A stretch of DNA of 64,000 nucleotides from Thermoanaerobaculia bacterium (lineage in GTDB: Bacteria > Acidobacteriota > Thermoanaerobaculia > UBA5066). Numbering within the stretch: the stretch's first letter is position 1; each line of letters starts with the position of its first letter. The translations under genes were made by a program, and so were the position numbers. Under the pieces are notes generated by a model. That model made no database searches. It saw nothing but the letters and a program-made list of their open reading frames with translations, and had not been told where the DNA came from. The stretch covers positions 96,001 through 160,000 of the forward strand of contig CAWFJJ010000025.1 of assembly GCA_963816185.1 (NCBI GenBank), in the 5' to 3' direction. Shown piece by piece: positions 56,015-64,000 of the stretch.

Positions 56015-56931
56015 TCACACCGCCTGGATCGGGTTTCTCAGGACGCCGATGCCTTCGATCTCCGACTCGAGCACGTCCCCGGGCTTGAGATATTCCGGCG
56101 GCTTTCGGGCGTGTCCGATGCCCGGCGGCGTGCCCGTCGCGAGGATGTCCCCGGGCTCGAGCGTCAGGCCGAGAGAGAGCTCCGCGAGGAGGCGCGGCAC
56201 CTTGAAATACATCCGGCTCGTGTTGCCGTCCTGCTTCAGGACGCCGTTGACGCGCGAGACGAGGCGCTTGGAAGACCAGTCGAAGCCGTCGCGCGTCACG
56301 ATCCAGGGCCCCATCGGCGCATGCCCGTCCAGGCTCTTGCCCTTCCACCACTGGCCGCCGTGCTTCTTCTGCTGGATGTCGCGGGCGGTCGTGTCGTTGA
56401 GGACGCAGAACCCGAAGACATGGTCCATCGCTTCTTCCTCGGAGAGGTTCTTCCCGCGCCGGCCGACGATGACCGCGAGCTCGACCTCCCAGTCGATCGC
56501 CGTCGACACGCGCGGATCGTAGGGAATCGGGTCGTACGGGCCGTTGACGGCGTTCGTCCCTTTCGTGAAGAAGACGGGATGCTCGGGAAGCGTCTGGCCC
56601 GAGTCCCTCAGCGACTTGCCTTCCTCGAAGTGCTCGGCGTAGTTCCATCCGACGCAGTGGACGTTCCGGCGTGGGACGGGAATCGGCGCCGCGAGATGTA
56701 CGTCGCTCGACGCGCGGCCCGCCGGTCCGCGGAGCCGTCGACGAGTGACTGAACCTCTGCGAGAGATTCCTCCCCGGCCGCGATCAGCGAAAGCATGTCG
56801 ACCGGATCGAACGACAAGGGGACGTTCTTCCGGCTCGCTTCCGCTCCGAGATCGATGACGTGGCCTCCGGGGGAGAGCGCGCCGACGCGGATTCCATTTC
56901 CGGGAGATGGAATGAAGCTGAAGAGTCTCAT
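56015..56931 (-). pseudogene. fumarylacetoacetate hydrolase family protein with one frameshift near 56715
   Basis: N-terminus MRLFSF...; after the frame change, CVGWNYAEH, FFTK, DWEVEL, NDTTARD, TGTPPG. Confidence 0.8.
56870..56931 (-). repeat. 62-bp direct repeat copy A (5' end of FAH gene)
   Basis: 59/62 identical to 57592-57653. Confidence 0.9.
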
Positions 56932-57278
56932 GGCATCAGCATCCCACGAACCCACCTCACGAGCGTGAAGAGGGCGCCCGCGACATACAACGCCCCGAAA
57001 ATCGTCTTGTTGTGGCGGGCCAGCAACTCGGGGAGGTAGATGTCGAAGTTGGCGCGGCGCTCGTGGGTGTAGCGCGCCGCGACGTCGGTGAGGGGGCACC
57101 GCCACGCGTTGACGAGGAGCACGAGGACCTCGAGAGCGACTAGCGCGATCAGGAAAGCGGCCCGCCCGTACTCGGAGCGGGCAGCCTCGACCGGGATCCC
57201 GAGAATGCAGGCGACGAAGAAAGCCCAGACGACGGTGTGGATCGTCTTGATCGTTCTGAGCGGCGCCGGAGCCGACAT
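56928..57278 (-). CDS. small membrane protein
   Basis: IKTIHT, WRCPLT..RY, NFDIYLP; three TMs. Confidence 0.8.
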   Translation of the reverse strand: MSAPAPLRTIKTIHTVVWAFFVACILGIPVEAARSEYGRAAFLIALVALEVLVLLVNAWRCPLTDVAARYTHERRANFDIYLPELLARHNKTIFGALYVAGALFTLVRWVRGMLMP

Positions 57279-57288
57279 GTGAGCCGAT

Positions 57289-57582
57289 CTACGGAGCTCC
57301 TTCCACGATGCGGATCTCGCGCTCGGCGGCGTCCTTCAGCACGGCGACCGCAGCCTGATAGGCCGGGCTCTCGTACGTCGCGATCGCCTGCGCGACGCTG
57401 TCGAACTCGATCACGACCGTCCGTTGATTTGTGCCGCCCTCGTACGTCCGGGCCGCGATTCCCCGTGCGAGGAACCGGCCTCCTCCCGCCTCGATGGCGG
57501 GGAGCCCGAGCTTCGCGTACTGGTCGAGACGGGCGAGATCGGAGACGGAGCGGTACGACGCGATCCAGTATCCCTTCCCCAT
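57289..57582 (-). CDS. DUF1330 family protein
   Basis: MGKGYWI..GGRFLARG..VVIEFDS..AYQAA. Confidence 0.9.
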   Translation of the reverse strand: MGKGYWIASYRSVSDLARLDQYAKLGLPAIEAGGGRFLARGIAARTYEGGTNQRTVVIEFDSVAQAIATYESPAYQAAVAVLKDAAEREIRIVEGAP

Positions 57583-57591
57583 CGGAGCCTC

Positions 57592-57653
57592 GGGGAGAGC
57601 GCGCCGACGCGGATTCCATTTCCAGGAGATGGAATAAAGCTGAAGAGTCGCAT
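57592..57653 (-). repeat. 62-bp direct repeat copy B (orphan 5' end of FAH gene)
   Basis: Encodes MRLFSFIPSPGNGIRVGALSP, then diverges. Confidence 0.9.
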
Positions 57654-57729
57654 CACGACCTATCATCTCGCAGTTGAAAAGAGAGTTGGCCCCGGTGTGA
57701 GCTCGCGCGCGGGAAGCTCTTGTGGGCTC

Positions 57730-58710
57730 CTACGCGAACATCGCGTCGCCGAGGCGTTTGAGCATCGGGACACCGCGGATCTCCGTCTCGTACAGCGGCA
57801 CGATGGCGCGGACGCTGCCGTCGAACTTCTGCCAGACGGTTTTCATGTGCTCGTCCTGCATGGCGACACGGTTCTTCACAAAGTCGGCCGCTTCGGCGCC
57901 GACGGAGGCCTTGTCGATCAGCATGTTGACGAGGACGCCGCCCACGGGGATGCCGAAATCGTGGAACCACTGGATGAAGCGGGTGATGACGGCGATCGGC
58001 AGCGCCTCGGGCAGCGTCACGAAGAAAAACGAGGTCTTCTGGGGGTCTGTGAGAAGCACGCGGCCGTGCTCCATCCGGTCGCGGAAGGAGAGGAGGTACG
58101 TCATCAGCGGGTCCTCCTCCTTCTTCTTCGTGAAGGAGAGCAGCTCGCGGAGGGTCTTCGCCTCTTCGCGGCTCTTGAGCATCTTGTTGACCCAGAGAGA
58201 GTAGACCTTGGACATACCGAGCAGGCGCCGGGCGTTGGCGGTGGGCGCGGTATCGAAGACGTAGACGTCGTACTCGTCCTTGAACATGAGGTCGATCATG
58301 TTCTCGAACATCGCCGACTCCTCGAAGGCGGGGTTCATGGTCGCCGACTCCACGAAGTCCTCGGCCTTCGTCGAGATGTCGGCGAACTTGAGGAACCATT
58401 TGATCTTCTCGCGGATCTCGACCTTCGAGCGCTCGATCGTCTCCTTCGTCTCGATCTCGTACGCCCACAGGTTCGGAGCGCCGTCGACCGGCGTGTGCTT
58501 TCCGAGCACGTTCTGGCCCAGGAGGCTCGAGAGACTGTGGACGGGGTTCGTCGAGGCCAGCATCGTCCGGCGCCCGAGCTGCGCGTTGTGGAGGGCGGTG
58601 GCGGCCGCGAAGACTGTCTTGCCGACGCCCCCCTTGCCGCCGAAGAAGATGTACTTCAGGCCGGCGTGGTCCTTGATGTAGGCGCTCATGGAGGTCTGGA
58701 TCTCAGGCAT
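57730..58710 (-). CDS. ArsA/Get3/TRC40-family ATPase, paralog 2
   Basis: GGKGGVGKT, STNPVHSL, DTAPTAN; no Cys; start 58710 (alternatives 58725, 58689). Confidence 0.92.
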   Translation of the reverse strand: MPEIQTSMSAYIKDHAGLKYIFFGGKGGVGKTVFAAATALHNAQLGRRTMLASTNPVHSLSSLLGQNVLGKHTPVDGAPNLWAYEIETKETIERSKVEIREKIKWFLKFADISTKAEDFVESATMNPAFEESAMFENMIDLMFKDEYDVYVFDTAPTANARRLLGMSKVYSLWVNKMLKSREEAKTLRELLSFTKKKEEDPLMTYLLSFRDRMEHGRVLLTDPQKTSFFFVTLPEALPIAVITRFIQWFHDFGIPVGGVLVNMLIDKASVGAEAADFVKNRVAMQDEHMKTVWQKFDGSVRAIVPLYETEIRGVPMLKRLGDAMFA

Positions 58711-58734
58711 GGCGGTTCTCTCCACGTCCCGGCT

Positions 58735-59721
58735 TCAGCCGAGCTTTCCGTTGCCGTACATGATCCCGGCGAGCTTCTCGATCATCCCGAGGCCCGTCAC
58801 GTCGCGCTCGAGCTCCGGGACGTAGGCGAGGACGTCTTTTCCGAACGTCGTCCTGATGTGTCCGAGGTACTTGTCCTGCATCTGGATCCGGTTGCGCAGA
58901 TAGTCGGGGATGTTCTGGTCGATCAGCTCGTGGGGGATGACGCGGTTGACGACGTAGCCGCCGATCGGGACGTCGAACTGGGCGAAGAGCTTCGCGGCTT
59001 TTTCCGTGTCCACGATGATCATGTCCTCCGGCGTCACGACGAAGAAGAACGCCGTCTTGTCCTTGTCCGTGAGGATCTTGGAGGACGCGTTGATCCGCCC
59101 CTTGATGTAGACGAGCTCGTTCAGGATCGCGTCCTGCTCGGTCTCCTTCTCGCGCTTGAGGCGGCTGACCATCTCCTCGTACTCGCGCATGTCCTCGCGC
59201 AGCTTCGTCACCTTGTTGATCCACTCGTCGTAGACCTTCGCCATCGAGAGGTAGTAGAGCGCGTGACCGAGCGGGACGAGATCGTAGATGTAGTAGTCGT
59301 AGTTCTCCTGGACGACGACGTCCACCACGGCGTCGAAGATCGCGCTCTCCTCCATGGCCGGCTCGGCGCTCGCGGCCTGGATGTAGCTTTCGATCTCCTC
59401 GGGCACCTTCTCGAGACCGTACATGTCCCGGATCTTCTTGCGGATCTCCTCCTGGTAGGCCTTGATGTGGCTGTCGGCGTCGATCTCCTGCGCCCACAGG
59501 TTCTCCATGATCTTCACCGGGCCCTTGCCGAAGATATCCCTCTGGAAGATGTCGGTGAGCGAGGCCTGGGGGTCGACGGAGAAGACGAGAACCTTCTTGC
59601 CCTGCTTCGCGAGCCAGTAGGCCGTCGCGGCCGAGAACGTCGTCTTTCCCAGGCCGCCCTTGCCGCCGAACATGATGTACCGGCGGCCCGGGTTCTGCTC
59701 GAACACCTCTTTCATCCCCAT
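58735..59721 (-). CDS. ArsA/Get3/TRC40-family ATPase, paralog 1
   Basis: GGKGGLGKT, SVDPQASL, DLVPLGH; no Cys. Confidence 0.92.
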   Translation of the reverse strand: MGMKEVFEQNPGRRYIMFGGKGGLGKTTFSAATAYWLAKQGKKVLVFSVDPQASLTDIFQRDIFGKGPVKIMENLWAQEIDADSHIKAYQEEIRKKIRDMYGLEKVPEEIESYIQAASAEPAMEESAIFDAVVDVVVQENYDYYIYDLVPLGHALYYLSMAKVYDEWINKVTKLREDMREYEEMVSRLKREKETEQDAILNELVYIKGRINASSKILTDKDKTAFFFVVTPEDMIIVDTEKAAKLFAQFDVPIGGYVVNRVIPHELIDQNIPDYLRNRIQMQDKYLGHIRTTFGKDVLAYVPELERDVTGLGMIEKLAGIMYGNGKLG

Positions 59722-59763
59722 GGTGCGTTCTCCTCTTTCTCGACGATCTTTTTCCCGGAGACC

Positions 59764-60051
59764 TCAGAACATCGCGTCGGAAACGTCCTTCTCCCGAAGC
59801 ATCCGGCGCTTCCACGTCGCGATCTGCGGGACGACGTGCGGAAGGAGTCGGAGGCTGTAGTACGGCGGGAGAATGGGGATCCCGAGCAGGTCTCCCATCG
59901 TGATGAGGATGAACAGGTGCTCCATGGAGGCCCGCGTCCGGAGAGCCGCGCGGCTCATGTCGTGCGCGGACATACCGTAAATGGTTTCCTTGAAACCGTG
60001 CCAGAGTCCCTTGAGGCCTCCCGGCCTGACGTATTTCTTCTTCTCGGACAC
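59764..60051 (-). CDS. small ArsA-associated hydrophobic protein, paralog B
   Basis: GAGGAG RBS; RASMEHLFILITMGDLLGIPILPPYYSLRLLP. Confidence 0.85.
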   Translation of the reverse strand: MSEKKKYVRPGGLKGLWHGFKETIYGMSAHDMSRAALRTRASMEHLFILITMGDLLGIPILPPYYSLRLLPHVVPQIATWKRRMLREKDVSDAMF

Positions 60052-60166
60052 CGTCTCCTCCTCTCGCCGCCCGGGCGCGATTCCGGGCCCGTTCCAAGGT
60101 TAGAGCCCCCGGCGCTCCGGGACGCGATGCAGATGCACTAATGAGATTTCGAGGAGATTCGGCCCG

Positions 60167-60218
60167 AAAAACGGCGAGCGCGCGCTCGAGGTGCCCGTGG
60201 CCCCCGAAGCGCGCGCTC
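60167..60218 (-). terminator. rho-independent terminator after the YXWGXW gene
   Basis: GAGCGCGCGCT...AGCGCGCGCTC stem followed by a T5 tract on the minus strand. Confidence 0.6.
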
Positions 60219-60253
60219 TGGTTTCAGCTCGACGCGGATTCCAGTGCTTCTCT

Positions 60254-60679
60254 CTACTTCTCCTTCACCTTCACCTTTTCCTTGACGATGACCTTTCTCC
60301 CGTTCTCCAACGTGATCACCTTCTGGGTGGTCCAGTGTCCGGGAACGTACTCGACACCGCGATCGACACGCGTGTACTCGGGCGCGACCCAGCGGACTTC
60401 CGCGGCCGGCGGAGCCGCCCAGCGCCCGGTGACCCAGACCCAGCCGGTGGGTCGATGGTCCCAGTAGCCTGCGATCCAGACGTAGCTCGGCGCGGGACGC
60501 GTGCTCTCGACGACCGCCTCCTCGACGGGCGGCGGCGGCTGCTCCTTGACGACCGTGACGGTCACCTCGTCAGGGATCGGCGGTGGCGGCGGCATCGGAA
60601 TCTGGGCCGTCGCGATTCCGGCGCCCAGCATGAGAGCGACACCCAGAGTCGGACCCAAGATGTTCTTACGACACATCAT
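60254..60679 (-). CDS. secreted YXWGXW-repeat protein
   Basis: Signal peptide, Pro-rich segment, YVWIAGYW / WVWVTGRW / YVPGHW repeats. Confidence 0.88.
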   Translation of the reverse strand: MMCRKNILGPTLGVALMLGAGIATAQIPMPPPPPIPDEVTVTVVKEQPPPPVEEAVVESTRPAPSYVWIAGYWDHRPTGWVWVTGRWAAPPAAEVRWVAPEYTRVDRGVEYVPGHWTTQKVITLENGRKVIVKEKVKVKEK

Positions 60680-60718
60680 GCTCTCCTTTCGGGGGTTCCG
60701 GACCCCGCGGAGGAGACC

Positions 60719-60733
60719 GCAATCACGATGCCA
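60719..60733 (-). promoter_or_regulatory. sigma54 (-24/-12) promoter
   Basis: TGGCATCGTGATTGC (GG-N10-GC) about 40 nt upstream of the YXWGXW start. Confidence 0.65.
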
Positions 60734-60808
60734 GGTGCCGTTGGCTCTTCTTCAAAAAAGGCCGATTCGCGTAAAGAATGCGCCGACCGACAACCATGAA
60801 CCGTGCCT

Positions 60809-61090
60809 TCAAACCCCGTGCAGATGCTGTTCGTGGCTGTCGCCGAACTGCCGCTCGCGCAGCGTGCGCCTCTTCCAGGTCTGAAGGCTGCCGGTGACGT
60901 ACGGGAGGAGGCGCAGGGCGTAATAGGGCGGCATCACCGGCACGCCGAGCATGTCGCCGAACGTGATGAGCATGAAGAGCGATTCCATCGACGCGCGGAT
61001 CTCGAGCGCCTGCTGCGCGTGCTCGTAGCCGAACATCCCGTAGAGGAATTCCCGGAACGCTTTTCCCCGGCCGCCGCGCGTTTCCACCAC
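60809..61090 (-). CDS. small ArsA-associated hydrophobic protein, paralog A
   Basis: GGAGGAG RBS; RASMESLFMLITFGDMLGVPVMPPYYALRLLP; paralog of 59764-60051. Confidence 0.85.
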   Translation of the reverse strand: MVETRGGRGKAFREFLYGMFGYEHAQQALEIRASMESLFMLITFGDMLGVPVMPPYYALRLLPYVTGSLQTWKRRTLRERQFGDSHEQHLHGV

Positions 61091-61197
61091 GTCTCTCCTC
61101 CGCGCCGAGTGTATACACAGGTCCAGTGAGGCTCCCTCACCTCATCACGGCCGTTAGTTATCGAACTGCAGGACCATTTCAATACAGGATTCTTGCG

Positions 61198-63645
61198 ATG
61201 CGGCTCTTAGGGTCTTCGCGTCGTGCCGGGCTTTCTGCTCTCGTCGCCGCGCTCTGCGCCGCCGCCGCGCCTGCCTTCGCGGGCGTGTGGTTCTGGCCTG
61301 TACCTGCGCCCCCGGACGCACTCGTGATCTCCAGTGCGGCGTTGTCGCTGACATCGAGCGGGCTCAATTTGAACATTCCGTACGGCCTCTTCGCGGTCCC
61401 GGGGCGCGGCATGTTTCACCTGGGATTAAGGCAATACGTGCCTGCGCCATGCGCGGACGCGCAGATAGTCGATATCCTCGACTATCAAACGCTCGCCGCC
61501 TGGACCAGCTGCGGCCTCTTGACCCTGTCTGGGCCAGCCGCCAAACCAGCGGGGCCCGGCCTGCCTGTCGGGGCGCAGGTTACGAGCATGCTGAATGGCC
61601 TCGTCGGGACCTCCAACGCGGGCGTCTACTCCTTTGGGTCGCTCGGAAGCGTTCTCACACCATCGAGCGACGGGCTCCCGGCAAACGCGCCGATCCGAAG
61701 CCTGGGTTTCGCGGCAGGGCGAACGTACGTTTCTCTTTCCGGCGGAGGTCTTTACGACAGAATTTCCGGCGGTCTGTGGAAAGACGCCTCCAACGGACTC
61801 CCGGCCGATGAGACGGTAAACGCCATCGGAGGGGCCCCGAGTACGTTCGCCGCAGTTGACGCGCACGGCATCTGGCGACGGATGGGGTACGGAAACTGGC
61901 AGCCCGATTCCGACGGCGCGAACTCTGCTGTGGTGACCTCTTTCGCAGGCTCATTCGCTGCCGCCCGAACCGCAGGAGTCCTGCGCCACGTGGACGGCGC
62001 GTGGATGCCCGAGACATCGGGACTTCCACCGGGCACGGACGCGCGCGTGATCGCCGCGGGCACAAGCGGCAGCCCGTTCTTTTTTGGCGAGAATTTGTTC
62101 TTCGGCACGGGAGGGCAGGGACTCTTCGAGGCGATCGCAACCCCGATGCAACGCGTCCTGCCCGCTCTCGTGGACACGGTCGGTGCAACCGGACAGCAGT
62201 TCCGAACGGAAATCACGATCGGGAATCTCGGTCCTTACGATTCCGTGGATCTATTGGTTTCTCGTCCCCCCGGCCTCACGACCCTACACATTCCGTTACG
62301 CACGGAGCTGAGGGCGCCCGACGCTGTTTCGTGGCTGCGCTCGACGGGACTGGATATCCCCGCGAGTGCCGCGGTGACCAGCCTGACGATCCCTCTTTTG
62401 GGTGGGTACGGAGATGTTCCATCTGGGAGATACATATTCGCCCGCATCTACACGACCGATGCGTCCGGGGGGACGTACGGCGTGATGCTCGAGGCGCCGA
62501 CGGATATCGATGCGGCGGAAGAGGAGGCGAGCGTCTACGGCCTGAGAAGCGCGGCAGGGGTCGAGCGCTCGAACCTCGCCGTATTTCACGTGTCGACCCT
62601 TCGCGGCTCCGACCCGATCACGCTTTCGGTCCAGGTGTTCGCGGCGGACGGAACCCCCGCACCGAACGTCCTCACCCGAACGCTTGCGCCCGGCGAATTC
62701 TTCCAGTGGAACGACGTGCTTCTCCTCGCGGGTCTGCCGCAGGGGTCGTCGGGCTACGCGCGGATCTCAAGGGTCGCGGGCATCGGCGCGTGGACCGGCT
62801 ACGGCGTCATCAACGACGCCGCGACTTCGGACGGCGCTGTGCTTCCGCTCTACCGGCCGGGAGGCCTCGCCGCGGCGCGGCGCCTGCTCGTGCCGGTCGT
62901 CCTCGACACGTACGGCGCGGCCGGGTCGCATTACACGACCGAGCTGACGCTCGCGAACGATTCGGCGCGGCCGTCGACGGCCTCGCTCCTCTATCACGCC
63001 GCTCCGGGCTACGGCGCTCCGCTCGCCGCGCCTGCCGTGTCGCTTCCCGTCGGCGCCGGGCGACAGGTCACACTCCCGGACGTCGTCGCGTTCCTGCGGG
63101 CGCATGGAGTGGCGATCCCGGATCCGCTGGCGGCGGGCTCTCAGGCCGGGACTCTCGAGATCGTCTTTCAAGGCCTCGACGGCGACGACGCGGCGAGAAC
63201 GGTCGCGCTCGCGCGCACGACGACGCCGAACCCGAATCGTGACACGGGAGGCCGCTTCGGCGTCTCGTATTCCGCGATCGCGTGGGGAGGCGGGGCGCGG
63301 CAGACGGCGCTGGTTCCCGCGCTGTCGCAGGACGCGGCGAGCCGCTCGAACCTCGCCGTCGTCAACGCCGGCGGCGGCTCCGAAGGCCCTATCACGCTCT
63401 CCGTCCAGCTCCGGGATGCGGACTCGGGCAGCGACGTGGGAAGCCCGCTCACCGTTTCCCTGAATCCCGGCGAGTGGTTCCAGTGGGACCGGGTGATCGA
63501 GCGCGCCGGCGCCGCGACCTCGAAGGCGATCGCGACCGTTACGCGCATTGCCGGAGACGACACGTTCTTCGCATACGGCGTCGTGAACGACGCGAAGACG
63601 TCCGACGGCAGCTTCATCCGGATGATCCGGCTCGACCCGGAGTAA
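61198..63645 (+). CDS. large secreted protein: propeller-like N-terminus plus duplicated beta-sandwich module
   Basis: Signal peptide; repeated S(D/N)GLP; twice P(A/V)(L/V)(V/L)DT.G...RSNLAV...YGV(I/V)NDA.TSDG. Confidence 0.8.
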   Translation: MRLLGSSRRAGLSALVAALCAAAAPAFAGVWFWPVPAPPDALVISSAALSLTSSGLNLNIPYGLFAVPGRGMFHLGLRQYVPAPCADAQIVDILDYQTLAAWTSCGLLTLSGPAAKPAGPGLPVGAQVTSMLNGLVGTSNAGVYSFGSLGSVLTPSSDGLPANAPIRSLGFAAGRTYVSLSGGGLYDRISGGLWKDASNGLPADETVNAIGGAPSTFAAVDAHGIWRRMGYGNWQPDSDGANSAVVTSFAGSFAAARTAGVLRHVDGAWMPETSGLPPGTDARVIAAGTSGSPFFFGENLFFGTGGQGLFEAIATPMQRVLPALVDTVGATGQQFRTEITIGNLGPYDSVDLLVSRPPGLTTLHIPLRTELRAPDAVSWLRSTGLDIPASAAVTSLTIPLLGGYGDVPSGRYIFARIYTTDASGGTYGVMLEAPTDIDAAEEEASVYGLRSAAGVERSNLAVFHVSTLRGSDPITLSVQVFAADGTPAPNVLTRTLAPGEFFQWNDVLLLAGLPQGSSGYARISRVAGIGAWTGYGVINDAATSDGAVLPLYRPGGLAAARRLLVPVVLDTYGAAGSHYTTELTLANDSARPSTASLLYHAAPGYGAPLAAPAVSLPVGAGRQVTLPDVVAFLRAHGVAIPDPLAAGSQAGTLEIVFQGLDGDDAARTVALARTTTPNPNRDTGGRFGVSYSAIAWGGGARQTALVPALSQDAASRSNLAVVNAGGGSEGPITLSVQLRDADSGSDVGSPLTVSLNPGEWFQWDRVIERAGAATSKAIATVTRIAGDDTFFAYGVVNDAKTSDGSFIRMIRLDPE

Positions 63646-63728: not shown

Positions 63729-64000
63729 ATGTTCCTGGTCGCGATCGTCATGGTGTGGTTCGCGGCCGGGAGCATCTGGAACGTGCGGAAGGGGAAGGCC
63801 ACGATCCGCTGGATGCAGGGAGGGCTTCATCTCCTCTGCGAAAGGACGACGGTCCGATGGCTCGGGACGACGGCGGTCGAGCTCGCCCTGGTGAAGCCTA
63901 AAGCCCCGTTCGAGGGGGTAACGCTCGTGATCTTCCTCGAGCCGCGGGACGTCCCGTGGCTCTGGGGGTTCTCGAGGAGCCGGGGGCGCCGCGACGCGCT
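63729..64000 (+). CDS. membrane-anchored hypothetical protein (runs off window)
   Basis: MFLVAIVMVWFAAGSIWNVRKG...RWLGTT...LEPRDVPWLW; GGAGG at 63703, possible CTG start 63714. Confidence 0.75.
   Translation, partial: MFLVAIVMVWFAAGSIWNVRKGKATIRWMQGGLHLLCERTTVRWLGTTAVELALVKPKAPFEGVTLVIFLEPRDVPWLWGFSRSRGRRDA

Follow-up and report, generated by a model that had tools for sequence, protein, structure and literature searches.

What do two adjacent ATPases of the Get3/ArsA family do when neither contains a cysteine and when they are encoded next to two small paralogous proteins? The question is raised by a stretch of 64,000 nucleotides from a Thermoanaerobaculia bacterium of the phylum Acidobacteriota (assembly GCA_963816185.1, contig CAWFJJ010000025.1, positions 96,001 to 160,000; hereafter “the window”), in which the genes for the ATPases, termed A and B, and for the small proteins, termed small1 and small2, are located on the minus strand. 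A sequence-only reading of this DNA had taken the four genes as a system of its own, consisting of an obligate heterodimer with one active and one regulatory site and of small proteins serving as adaptors or substrates. This interpretation is partly supported by the present analysis. None of the three outcomes named as speaking against it was observed (substitutions that vary among orthologs, linkage to ars genes, small proteins occurring apart from the ATPase pair), but the four genes are part of a larger unit. The locus is almost certainly one copy of a conserved six-gene cassette that comprises cstA, a divergent gene for a 207-aa protein, small1, small2, A, and B, and this copy is locally interrupted by two unrelated genes. 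Furthermore, the grouping of cstA, cstX, and an arsA homolog has been in print since 2010 (Castillo and Saier, 2010; PMC2963123) and has apparently never been tested at the bench. Tentatively, and at a little less than an even chance, A and B may form an asymmetric heterodimer, catalytic at one site and degenerate at the other, by which the CstA permease would be driven or gated through a presumed physical contact.

Two ATPases with complementary switch motifs

ATPase A (58735-59721, minus strand) and ATPase B (57730-58710, minus strand) are single-domain proteins of the Get3/ArsA family with 328 and 326 aa, respectively. The Met start of B follows its orthologs and the gene callers, and its open reading frame (ORF) extends over 57730-58725 on the minus strand (331 aa) if the GTG at 58725 is the start. 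Together with small2 (59764-60051, minus strand, 95 aa) and small1 (60809-61090, minus strand, 93 aa), they are present where the sequence-only reading had placed them, as two tandem, cysteine-free, single-domain ATPases and two paralogs of 93–95 aa; there is no Cys in any of the four proteins. The span of 57730-61090 does hold these four genes, but an unrelated gene with a WXXGXW repeat, located between the two small genes, had gone unflagged.

Both ATPases match PF02374 (ArsA_ATPase; E-values of 8e-64 and 3e-74) and are above the cut-off of 135 bits for TIGR00345, the GET3/ArsA/TRC40 subfamily, with 235.4 bits for A and 206 bits for B. The identity between A and B is 34% over 323 aa. The closest solved relatives of A are the archaeal Get3 chains 3ug6 and 3zq6, which align over the full length (E-values of 2e-62 and 2e-60; 214 and 208 bits) and which we take to be Get3 from M. 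jannaschii and M. thermautotrophicus, and the closest solved relatives of B are likewise archaeal Get3. The sequence PDYL in A aligns to the CDFC of 3ug6. As judged from sequence alignment only, the lid that follows switch II lacks four residues in A relative to 3ug6 and carries more charge, and the lid of B is shorter again.

The switch motifs of the two proteins depart from the family pattern in a complementary manner and read exactly as had been claimed (STNPVH with an intact DTAP in one protein, SVDP with DLVPLGH in the other). ATPase A has a GGKGGLGKT P-loop and an SVDPQAS switch I, in which the Asp is kept. In its switch II, YDLVPLGHALYYL, Leu-Val and Leu replace Thr-Ala and Thr (DLVPLGH), but the Asp of Walker B, the Pro, and the Gly-His are retained. 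ATPase B has an intact deviant Walker A motif (GGKGGVGKT), an STNPVHS switch I with Asn at the position of the catalytic Asp of the family, and a switch II, FDTAPTANARRLL, in which Ala-Asn replaces Gly-His (DTAPTAN). The Asn in B is at the position of D57 of yeast Get3, where the replacement of Asp by Asn (D57N) blocks hydrolysis. Both A and B should bind nucleotide, since each retains the P-loop (GK[ST]), the Asp of Walker B, and the conserved Asn of the C-terminal part.

The automatic annotation of such proteins as the ATPase of a true ArsA arsenite/antimonite pump draws on the PF02374 match and on homologs named “arsenite-transporting ATPase,” and databases still label the ATPases of the cassette as arsenite pumps. 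For A and B, this function is next to impossible. True ArsA is modeled by TIGR04291 with a cut-off of 650 bits, whereas the two proteins score 103.1 and 106.8 bits, and both are single domains of ~330 aa rather than fused halves of ~580 aa. Without any Cys, they have no counterpart of the metalloid-binding cysteines of ArsA, which are C113, C172, and C422 in the Escherichia coli protein as described in the 2010 survey (PMC2963123). No ars genes are present among the neighboring ORFs that were read, and a search of the whole genome, which is 94.9% complete, detected neither ArsB (PF02040) nor ArsD (PF06953) (arsC and arsR were not searched genome-wide). An acr3 gene is present on another contig, C5. 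The claim that the locus is free of ars genes and of linkage to them stands. The clusters described in the 2010 survey, in which cstA is grouped with arsA homologs, likewise contain no ars gene (PMC2963123). The tests of family membership already contradict arsenite pumping.

To examine the conservation of the locus, 201 genomes of the same phylum were sampled, and the small protein was found in 16 of them. The loci are of two types. The paired type, with two small genes followed by A and B, is found in eight of the 201 genomes, including the window genome, and the single type, with one small gene followed by one ATPase gene, is found in eight genomes as well. The deviant motifs of the paired type are identical in 6/6 A and 6/6 B sequences (window included), and cstA is located directly upstream on the same strand in all seven of the other paired loci, as determined by tblastn with CstA from the window genome (the Pfam CstA search covered ten genomes of the sample). 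The single-type ATPases are canonical, with STDPAH and DTAP(T/S)GH in 7/7 sequences covering the motifs.

A wider scan, using one genome per species and an eight-row alignment of small2, yielded at least 600 matching stretches, of which the best 80 loci were analyzed. All 80 are of the paired type by construction because they were chosen by likeness to small2, and the counts given here are restricted to loci with enough flank (for cstA, at least 3.3 kb upstream) or to matches covering the motif. These loci represent at least seven phyla and belong to Acidobacteriota, Alpha-, Beta-, and Gammaproteobacteria, Chloroflexota, Myxococcota, Actinomycetota, and Binatia, and the cassette is common among soil, peat, and groundwater bacteria of many phyla. 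The matches at the 80 loci are 70–99% identical to small2, and a core identity this high across phyla suggests a tightly interlocked machine. A second small gene is present in 76/76 loci and A plus B in 67/67, and cstA is located upstream in 62/66. Orthologs of A have SVDPQAS in 76/77 and YDLVPLGHALYYL in 75/76 cases, while orthologs of B have the P-loop in 73/73, STNPVHS in 73/73, and FDTAPTANARRLL in 71/71. The Asn and DLVP substitutions, whose conservation had been left as a question, are therefore essentially invariant, and the active-site deviations of A and B are not decay. Moreover, the expected co-occurrence of the small proteins with the ATPase pair was found, and the earlier statement that such small proteins occur between cstA and arsA-like genes proved correct.

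The P-loop of A is more variable, being GGKGGLGKT in 54 of 76 loci, GGGGGVGKT in 19, GGAGGVGKT in one, and another sequence in two. The signature Lys is thus lost from A in 20/76 loci (GGGGGVGKT or GGAGGVGKT) and never from B (73/73). In ATPases with a deviant Walker A motif, the first Lys of GKGGxGKT reaches over to the nucleotide of the partner in the dimer, and a loss from A only would be the pattern expected if the B site no longer hydrolyzes ATP. The sampled variants are all in one proteobacterial clade, and the loss is therefore probably a single retained event. In a quick tree, A and B are on opposite sides of a strongly supported branch (approximate likelihood-ratio test, SH-aLRT, 100 and 99), with long stems (3.68 and 2.57) and short tips (median 0.083). 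Long stems with short tips fit a single ancient duplication after which both copies were tightly constrained, and they also fit an obligate heterodimer.

Membership in the GET3/ArsA/TRC40 subfamily and the likeness to archaeal Get3 could also indicate a general targeting factor for tail-anchored proteins, i.e., a bacterial GET pathway with many clients, in which the small proteins would be clients or co-chaperones. Bacterial homologs that resemble archaeal Get3 and are devoid of CxxC are mentioned in a passage of a review (PMC6593721). However, the cassette is tightly linked to one permease gene, and its distribution (16/201 genomes of the phylum) is sporadic, unlike that of a housekeeping pathway. 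In addition, the small proteins have their hydrophobic stretch in the interior of the chain, ahead of a charged helix of 30 residues, so that a C-terminal anchor is absent. General targeting is accordingly highly improbable.

Relatives of B, A, small2, and small1 with 90–99% identity were found on contigs of RNA libraries from four soil or paddy runs belonging to three studies, and these contigs span the B-A and A-small2 junctions. The bridging of junctions is compatible with co-transcription, although it is no proof of transcription, strand, ends, or level, and carry-over of DNA is possible.

A permease gene with putative small and anchored partners

The gene cstA (window-equivalent 64349-66325, minus strand; G000:C25:160349-162325) is located wholly beyond the window, 349 bases past its end, on the same strand as small1 and 3.3 kb upstream of it, and encodes a protein of 658 aa (PF02554, E-value of 1e-101). 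The genome has two other cstA genes (G000:C27:4401-6110 and G000:C21:77432-79069), one of them classical and full-length, and no DUF7990 or ArsA-like neighbors were detected at either. It also has a third, more distant ArsA-like gene (G000:C29:144087-144938), which is 28% identical to A and has an open frame of 430 aa.

The small proteins are 55% identical to each other over 74 aa and are assigned to DUF7990. Their relatives in a large protein database number 4569 at an E-value of ≤0.001, and PF25952 is precomputed on all 120 listed homologs, one of which has 95 aa and is 99% identical at full coverage. According to the Atlas, PF25952 is DUF7990, and clusters scoring 0.96–0.97 have DUF7990 in 97–100% of their members; an exhaustive search of 50%-identity representatives gave 384 clusters. 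The local copy of Pfam gave no family for the small proteins. The NCBIfam model cory-CC-star (NF041419) gives a weak but specific match, with 34.6 bits for small2 and 39.3 bits for small1, both below its cut-off of 80. A C-terminal Cys-Cys is expected for this family from a reading of its name; it is present in 8/8 single-type small proteins of the same phylum and absent from small1 (...HLHGV) and small2 (...DAMF). Literature searches with DUF7990, PF25952, and cory-CC-star found nothing relevant.

Of the two paralogs, small2 is the more conserved, with the core ...SMEHLFILITMGDLLGIPILPPYYSLRLLP..VP.I.TWKRRMLREKD and the C-terminus D.SDAMF, and its tail is acidic and devoid of His and Cys. The conserved tail of small1 is ..RERE.GD.HE.HLHG[VLI], the window protein having the His-rich form DSHEQHLHGV. 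In an alignment of 32 small1 orthologs, the mean column identity is 68%, and H86, L90, and G92 are conserved at ≥90%, H86 being the sole His so conserved. Each small protein has the single hydrophobic stretch that had been noted, but with best 19-residue Kyte-Doolittle means of 1.40 (small1) and 1.61 (small2), these stretches are borderline as membrane helices. An AlphaFold2 monomer model of small2 is a two-helix hairpin (H14-56 and H63-94) of moderate confidence (predicted local distance difference test, pLDDT, 73.9; predicted template modeling score, pTM, 0.37), and its tip holds the hydrophobic segment and the invariant G..G.P..PPYY turn. A complex prediction of A, B, two ATP, and small2, in which small2 was scored, gave 0.35/0.23/0.31 against a mark of 0.32, with controls at 0.00/0.00/0.02, and counts neither way.

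Longer ORFs for the small protein (286, 575, and 631 aa) occur in some loci and were rejected as fusions, since their N-terminal extensions appear to come from neighboring genes in high-GC DNA, read in the wrong frame or antisense. Eight loci of Anaerolineales/Chloroflexota (L094, L095, L099, L100, L109, L113, L121, and L123) have a third DUF7990 paralog after B, 54–65% identical to small2.

The Cys-Cys ends of the single-type relatives, the feature behind the name cory-CC-star, raise the possibility of a hand-over chaperone resembling ArsD-ArsA, in which the tails of the small proteins would bind a metal or thiol-reactive ligand and the ATPase would pass it to or from a membrane transporter. 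One single-type pair is flanked by a gene for a P1B-type heavy-metal ATPase (with HMA domains) on one side and by an outer-membrane efflux gene on the other. Two single-type pairs are followed by a DinB_2 gene, the family of which also matches a mycothiol-S-transferase model; the His-rich tail of small1 would suit this function as well. For the paired cassette, however, such a hand-over is improbable, as the proteins here are without any Cys, the ATPases are without the metalloid cysteines of ArsA, only H86 of the small1 tail is highly conserved, the small2 tail offers neither His nor Cys, and there is no metal-handling gene in the cassette. The single-type loci that are away from cstA and have metal-ATPase/efflux or DinB_2 neighbors are L037 (G133:C2), L038 (G188:C2), and L044 (G168:C30).

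A gap of ~750 bp between cstA and small1 is constant in relatives and encodes a conserved protein of ~207 aa on the opposite strand. This sixth gene was found in 63/66 loci with enough flank. In the present genome, it extends over 63729-64352 on the plus strand (G000:C25:159729-160352), with its 5′ part (63729-64000) in the window. The protein has no Pfam (E-value of ≤0.01) or NCBIfam family, and its Atlas neighbors are unnamed. A match of its family profile to TolQ among PDB sequences (E-value of 0.0012, 21.9 bits) is probably due to chance. In the AlphaFold2 model of the protein (pLDDT 93.8, pTM 0.88), which is very confident, a membrane helix at the N-terminus precedes an alpha/beta domain. 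Since this helix (Kyte-Doolittle 1.99) is followed by Arg/Lys, the domain is placed in the cytoplasm by the positive-inside rule.

Structure comparison of the model with VIA-align identified 7tut_4 (Z of 16.4, 203/207 residues aligned, root-mean-square deviation of 2.9 Å) and residues 81-366 of 9i78_4 (Z of 14.7), both of which are ribosome-translocon chains and far above all other structure matches. The next was TtfA (6t84; Z of 9.1), the trehalose monomycolate transport factor according to the title of the PDB entry, and the remaining rows were at ≤7.1. Foldseek agrees on both translocon chains (E-values of 3e-7 and 3e-6). According to PMC12572126, 9I78 and 7TUT have SEC61 and CCDC47 in common, and residues 76-370 of fungal CCDC47 form a transmembrane domain (TMD) and a globular domain; from these statements and the residue ranges, the matched chains are probably CCDC47. 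A weak, independent language-model lead in the Atlas points to PF07946 (CCDC47; score of 0.80, rank 22), while no sequence match to PF07946 was obtained at an E-value of ≤0.01.

If the chains are indeed CCDC47, the 207-aa model has the TMD and globular fold of this protein. CCDC47, which belongs to the PAT complex of the multipass translocon in the endoplasmic reticulum, and mycobacterial TtfA share with the 207-aa protein one N-terminal helix and a cytoplasmic alpha/beta domain of the same fold. However, identity to the 207-aa protein is 10–14%, the latch helices at the C-terminus of CCDC47 are absent because the 207-aa protein ends with the last helix of the globular domain, and there is no known Asterix-like partner.

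This likeness underlies the main rival to the proposal that the ATPases energize CstA, namely that the cassette is a dedicated biogenesis or holdase machine. A and B, the hairpins, and the CCDC47-like anchor would capture, insert, or assemble CstA (or the small proteins) and would not power transport. Such a role is possible, though doubtful. It is favored by the full-length alignment to archaeal Get3 as the closest solved relative, by the resemblance of the 207-aa protein to CCDC47 (TMD and globular domain), which is part of the intramembrane chaperone PAT, together with the Atlas lead, and by the modeled hairpins with their hydrophobic tip. On the other hand, the latch helices are missing, the lid appears shorter and more charged than in archaeal Get3, the other cstA paralogs of the genome (on C21 and C27) have no such partners nearby, and a shared fold is no proof of shared function. 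In the fullest form of this reading, which is rather unlikely, the cassette would be a self-contained prokaryotic device for the insertion, assembly, or quality control of one multi-pass permease, consisting of an asymmetric Get3-like heterodimer, a CCDC47-like anchor, and two hairpin adaptors. If true, bacteria would carry working relatives of parts of the eukaryotic GET pathway and PAT complex in one horizontally spread, operon-sized unit, and a biogenesis role would offer a simple bacterial system for the study of Get3-like and CCDC47-like proteins.

Proposed driving or gating of the CstA permease

In the mechanism that we favor, with the reserve expressed above, A and B would form a heterodimer with two unequal nucleotide sites. 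The A site would be catalytic, with the switch I Asp provided in cis and the signature Lys of B in trans. The B site would bind ATP and hydrolyze it poorly or not at all owing to the Asn in place of the Asp, and the trans Lys from A would be dispensable. At the cytoplasmic face of CstA, the ATPase would be held by the two hairpin proteins together with the anchored 207-aa protein, and the co-duplication of the small proteins suggests one small protein per ATPase subunit. Like ArsA at ArsB, the ATPase would then use the binding and hydrolysis of ATP to drive or gate transport. Arsenite is not the substrate, which by the family of the permease is more likely pyruvate or peptide-like.

Several points weigh against this mechanism. 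Contact between any two of the cassette proteins is something that we infer. The linkage of the ATPase and the small protein to CstA is not strict, as only 3/8 single-type loci are beside cstA (two of these three being flanked by two cstA genes). The closest NCBIfam model calls CstA a pyruvate/proton symporter, which is a type of transporter that needs no ATPase. The archaeal Get3 relatives and the CCDC47-like sixth gene indicate biogenesis as much as energization. Switch II of A itself departs from the canonical form, and its site may be less than fully normal in catalysis. Finally, the loss of the signature Lys is weak as statistics because it probably represents one event. If the energizing role nevertheless holds, the cassette would be the second case, after ArsAB, of a Get3/ArsA ATPase making a secondary carrier ATP-dependent, with one degenerate site built in, as in many heterodimeric ABC transporters.

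An interrupted copy and its known relatives

The two genes that interrupt the window copy are outside the conserved cassette. The first (60254-60679, minus strand, 141 aa; PF12779, E-value of 5e-6) is located between small2 and small1 and encodes a protein with a hydrophobic, signal-like segment at the N-terminus, a Pro-rich stretch, and the WXXGXW repeat. None of the 95 fetched loci, in which small2 directly adjoins small1, contained a match to it. In one RNA-library contig of a relative, position 60076 is joined to 60808 and 731 bases are omitted, so a close relative in that soil is without the WXXGXW insert. No RNA-library contigs were found over 60262-60745, which covers the WXXGXW gene, and this has no bearing either way.

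The second gene (61126-63645, plus strand) encodes an 839-aa protein with a signal-like N-terminus, for which there was no Pfam or NCBIfam match and no match in the other fetched loci. It separates small1 from the 207-aa gene, which are direct divergent neighbors in relatives. The 839-aa protein seems to have an internal duplication, with two similar C-terminal blocks ending in ...GVINDAATSDGA... and ...GVVNDAKTSDGS... Insertions of ~1.7–2.4 kb are also present between small2 and A and between A and B in two other loci (L083, 5442-7890; L100, 7288-9014), and an interrupted gene order is therefore not unique to the window.

Despite the two insertions, all six cassette ORFs are intact. The third-position GC content of the cassette genes (0.85–0.95) is similar to that of their neighbors, indicating native codon usage, and the lower overall GC content of the region (0.62) results from Lys/Glu-rich proteins and not from foreign DNA. 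A scan of 57200-61400 for promoters and terminators was uninformative (no promoter-like sites; four terminator-like sites against 3.4 expected). The stop codons of the four genes are TGA in three cases and TAG in one, and the sequence downstream of them was unremarkable in a check for read-through. Past its TGA, the frame of small2 remains open over 13 more codons and reaches the beginning of ATPase A (59722-59766), which is probably a coincidence. Downstream of B are genes for a DUF1330 protein and a hydrophobic protein of 116 aa (57289-57666 and 56928-57278, both on the minus strand), which are not kept beside the cassette elsewhere.

The locus is thus a new, locally interrupted copy of an already known cassette. 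The survey by Castillo and Saier (Int J Microbiol 2010:187373; PMC2963123) describes 26 clusters of cstA with arsA homologs, 24 of which include CstX, a protein of ~90 aa. It reports co-evolving trees and proposes that the ATPase energizes CstA, with CstX as a linker. The window shares with these clusters the cstA permease, the ~90-aa proteins between it and the single-domain ArsA homologs of ~330 aa (328 and 326 aa here), and the lack of a neighboring ars gene. Adjacent ArsA pairs are placed in Cluster 15 of the survey for Pyrobaculum arsenaticum and Symbiobacterium thermophilum, and the pair from P. arsenaticum, which is 31% identical and accompanied by two paralogous CstX proteins, has the same layout of two ATPases and two small proteins as the window. 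The survey also states that the Asp of SxD in single-domain homologs is replaceable only by N.

Both small proteins are accordingly labeled here as CstX type, and the 207-aa protein may belong to the CstY type, a ~210-aa protein with one transmembrane segment. The equation of CstX with DUF7990 and of CstY with the 207-aa gene is based on size, position, and layout only. CstY was described in five archaeal clusters only, whereas the one-helix protein found here is near-constant in bacteria and encoded divergently. Absent from the cluster descriptions in the survey are the pattern of complementary motifs, the missing signature Lys, and the fold resembling CCDC47, and the window copy adds two inserted genes. 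No later test of the module of cstA, cstX, and arsA homolog was found in a literature search, in which CstX combined with CstA gave only the 2010 survey.

Among characterized systems, the ArsA-ArsB pump provides the working analogy, since it contains an ATPase of the same family with two non-identical nucleotide-binding halves acting on a secondary-type permease. The halves are fused in ArsA and separate in the cassette, which consists of two ATPase polypeptides with extra small and anchored partners and has no metalloid Cys, ArsB, ArsD, or ars operon. The closest match over the whole length is instead Get3/TRC40 of archaea and eukaryotes, from the same TIGR00345 subfamily. Get3 is a homodimer, and its archaeal chains aligned here carry the canonical STDPAHS and DTAPTGH, with CDFC in 3ug6. 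In the cassette pair, the motifs are altered complementarily in two paralogs, the zinc-binding CxxC of Get3/TRC40 (which is not universal in the family) is absent along with every other Cys, and the genes are fixed beside a permease.

A pair of different chains from this family is known from Mycobacterium tuberculosis, where BagA and BagB (Rv3679/Rv3680; PDB 6bs3) are two Get3/ArsA-like proteins present in the same PDB entries, and a secondary paper describes BagA/BagB as protecting against glycerol and nitric oxide toxicity. A and B are not BagA and BagB themselves, with 44.5/55.7 bits against a cut-off of 400 for NF053622 and 44.0/37.6 bits against a cut-off of 521 for NF053621, and the E-values to the PDB chains (3e-9 to 6e-6) likewise indicate a distant relationship. 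BagA/BagB nonetheless provide a precedent for a bacterial heterodimer of the Get3/ArsA family with a non-arsenic function.

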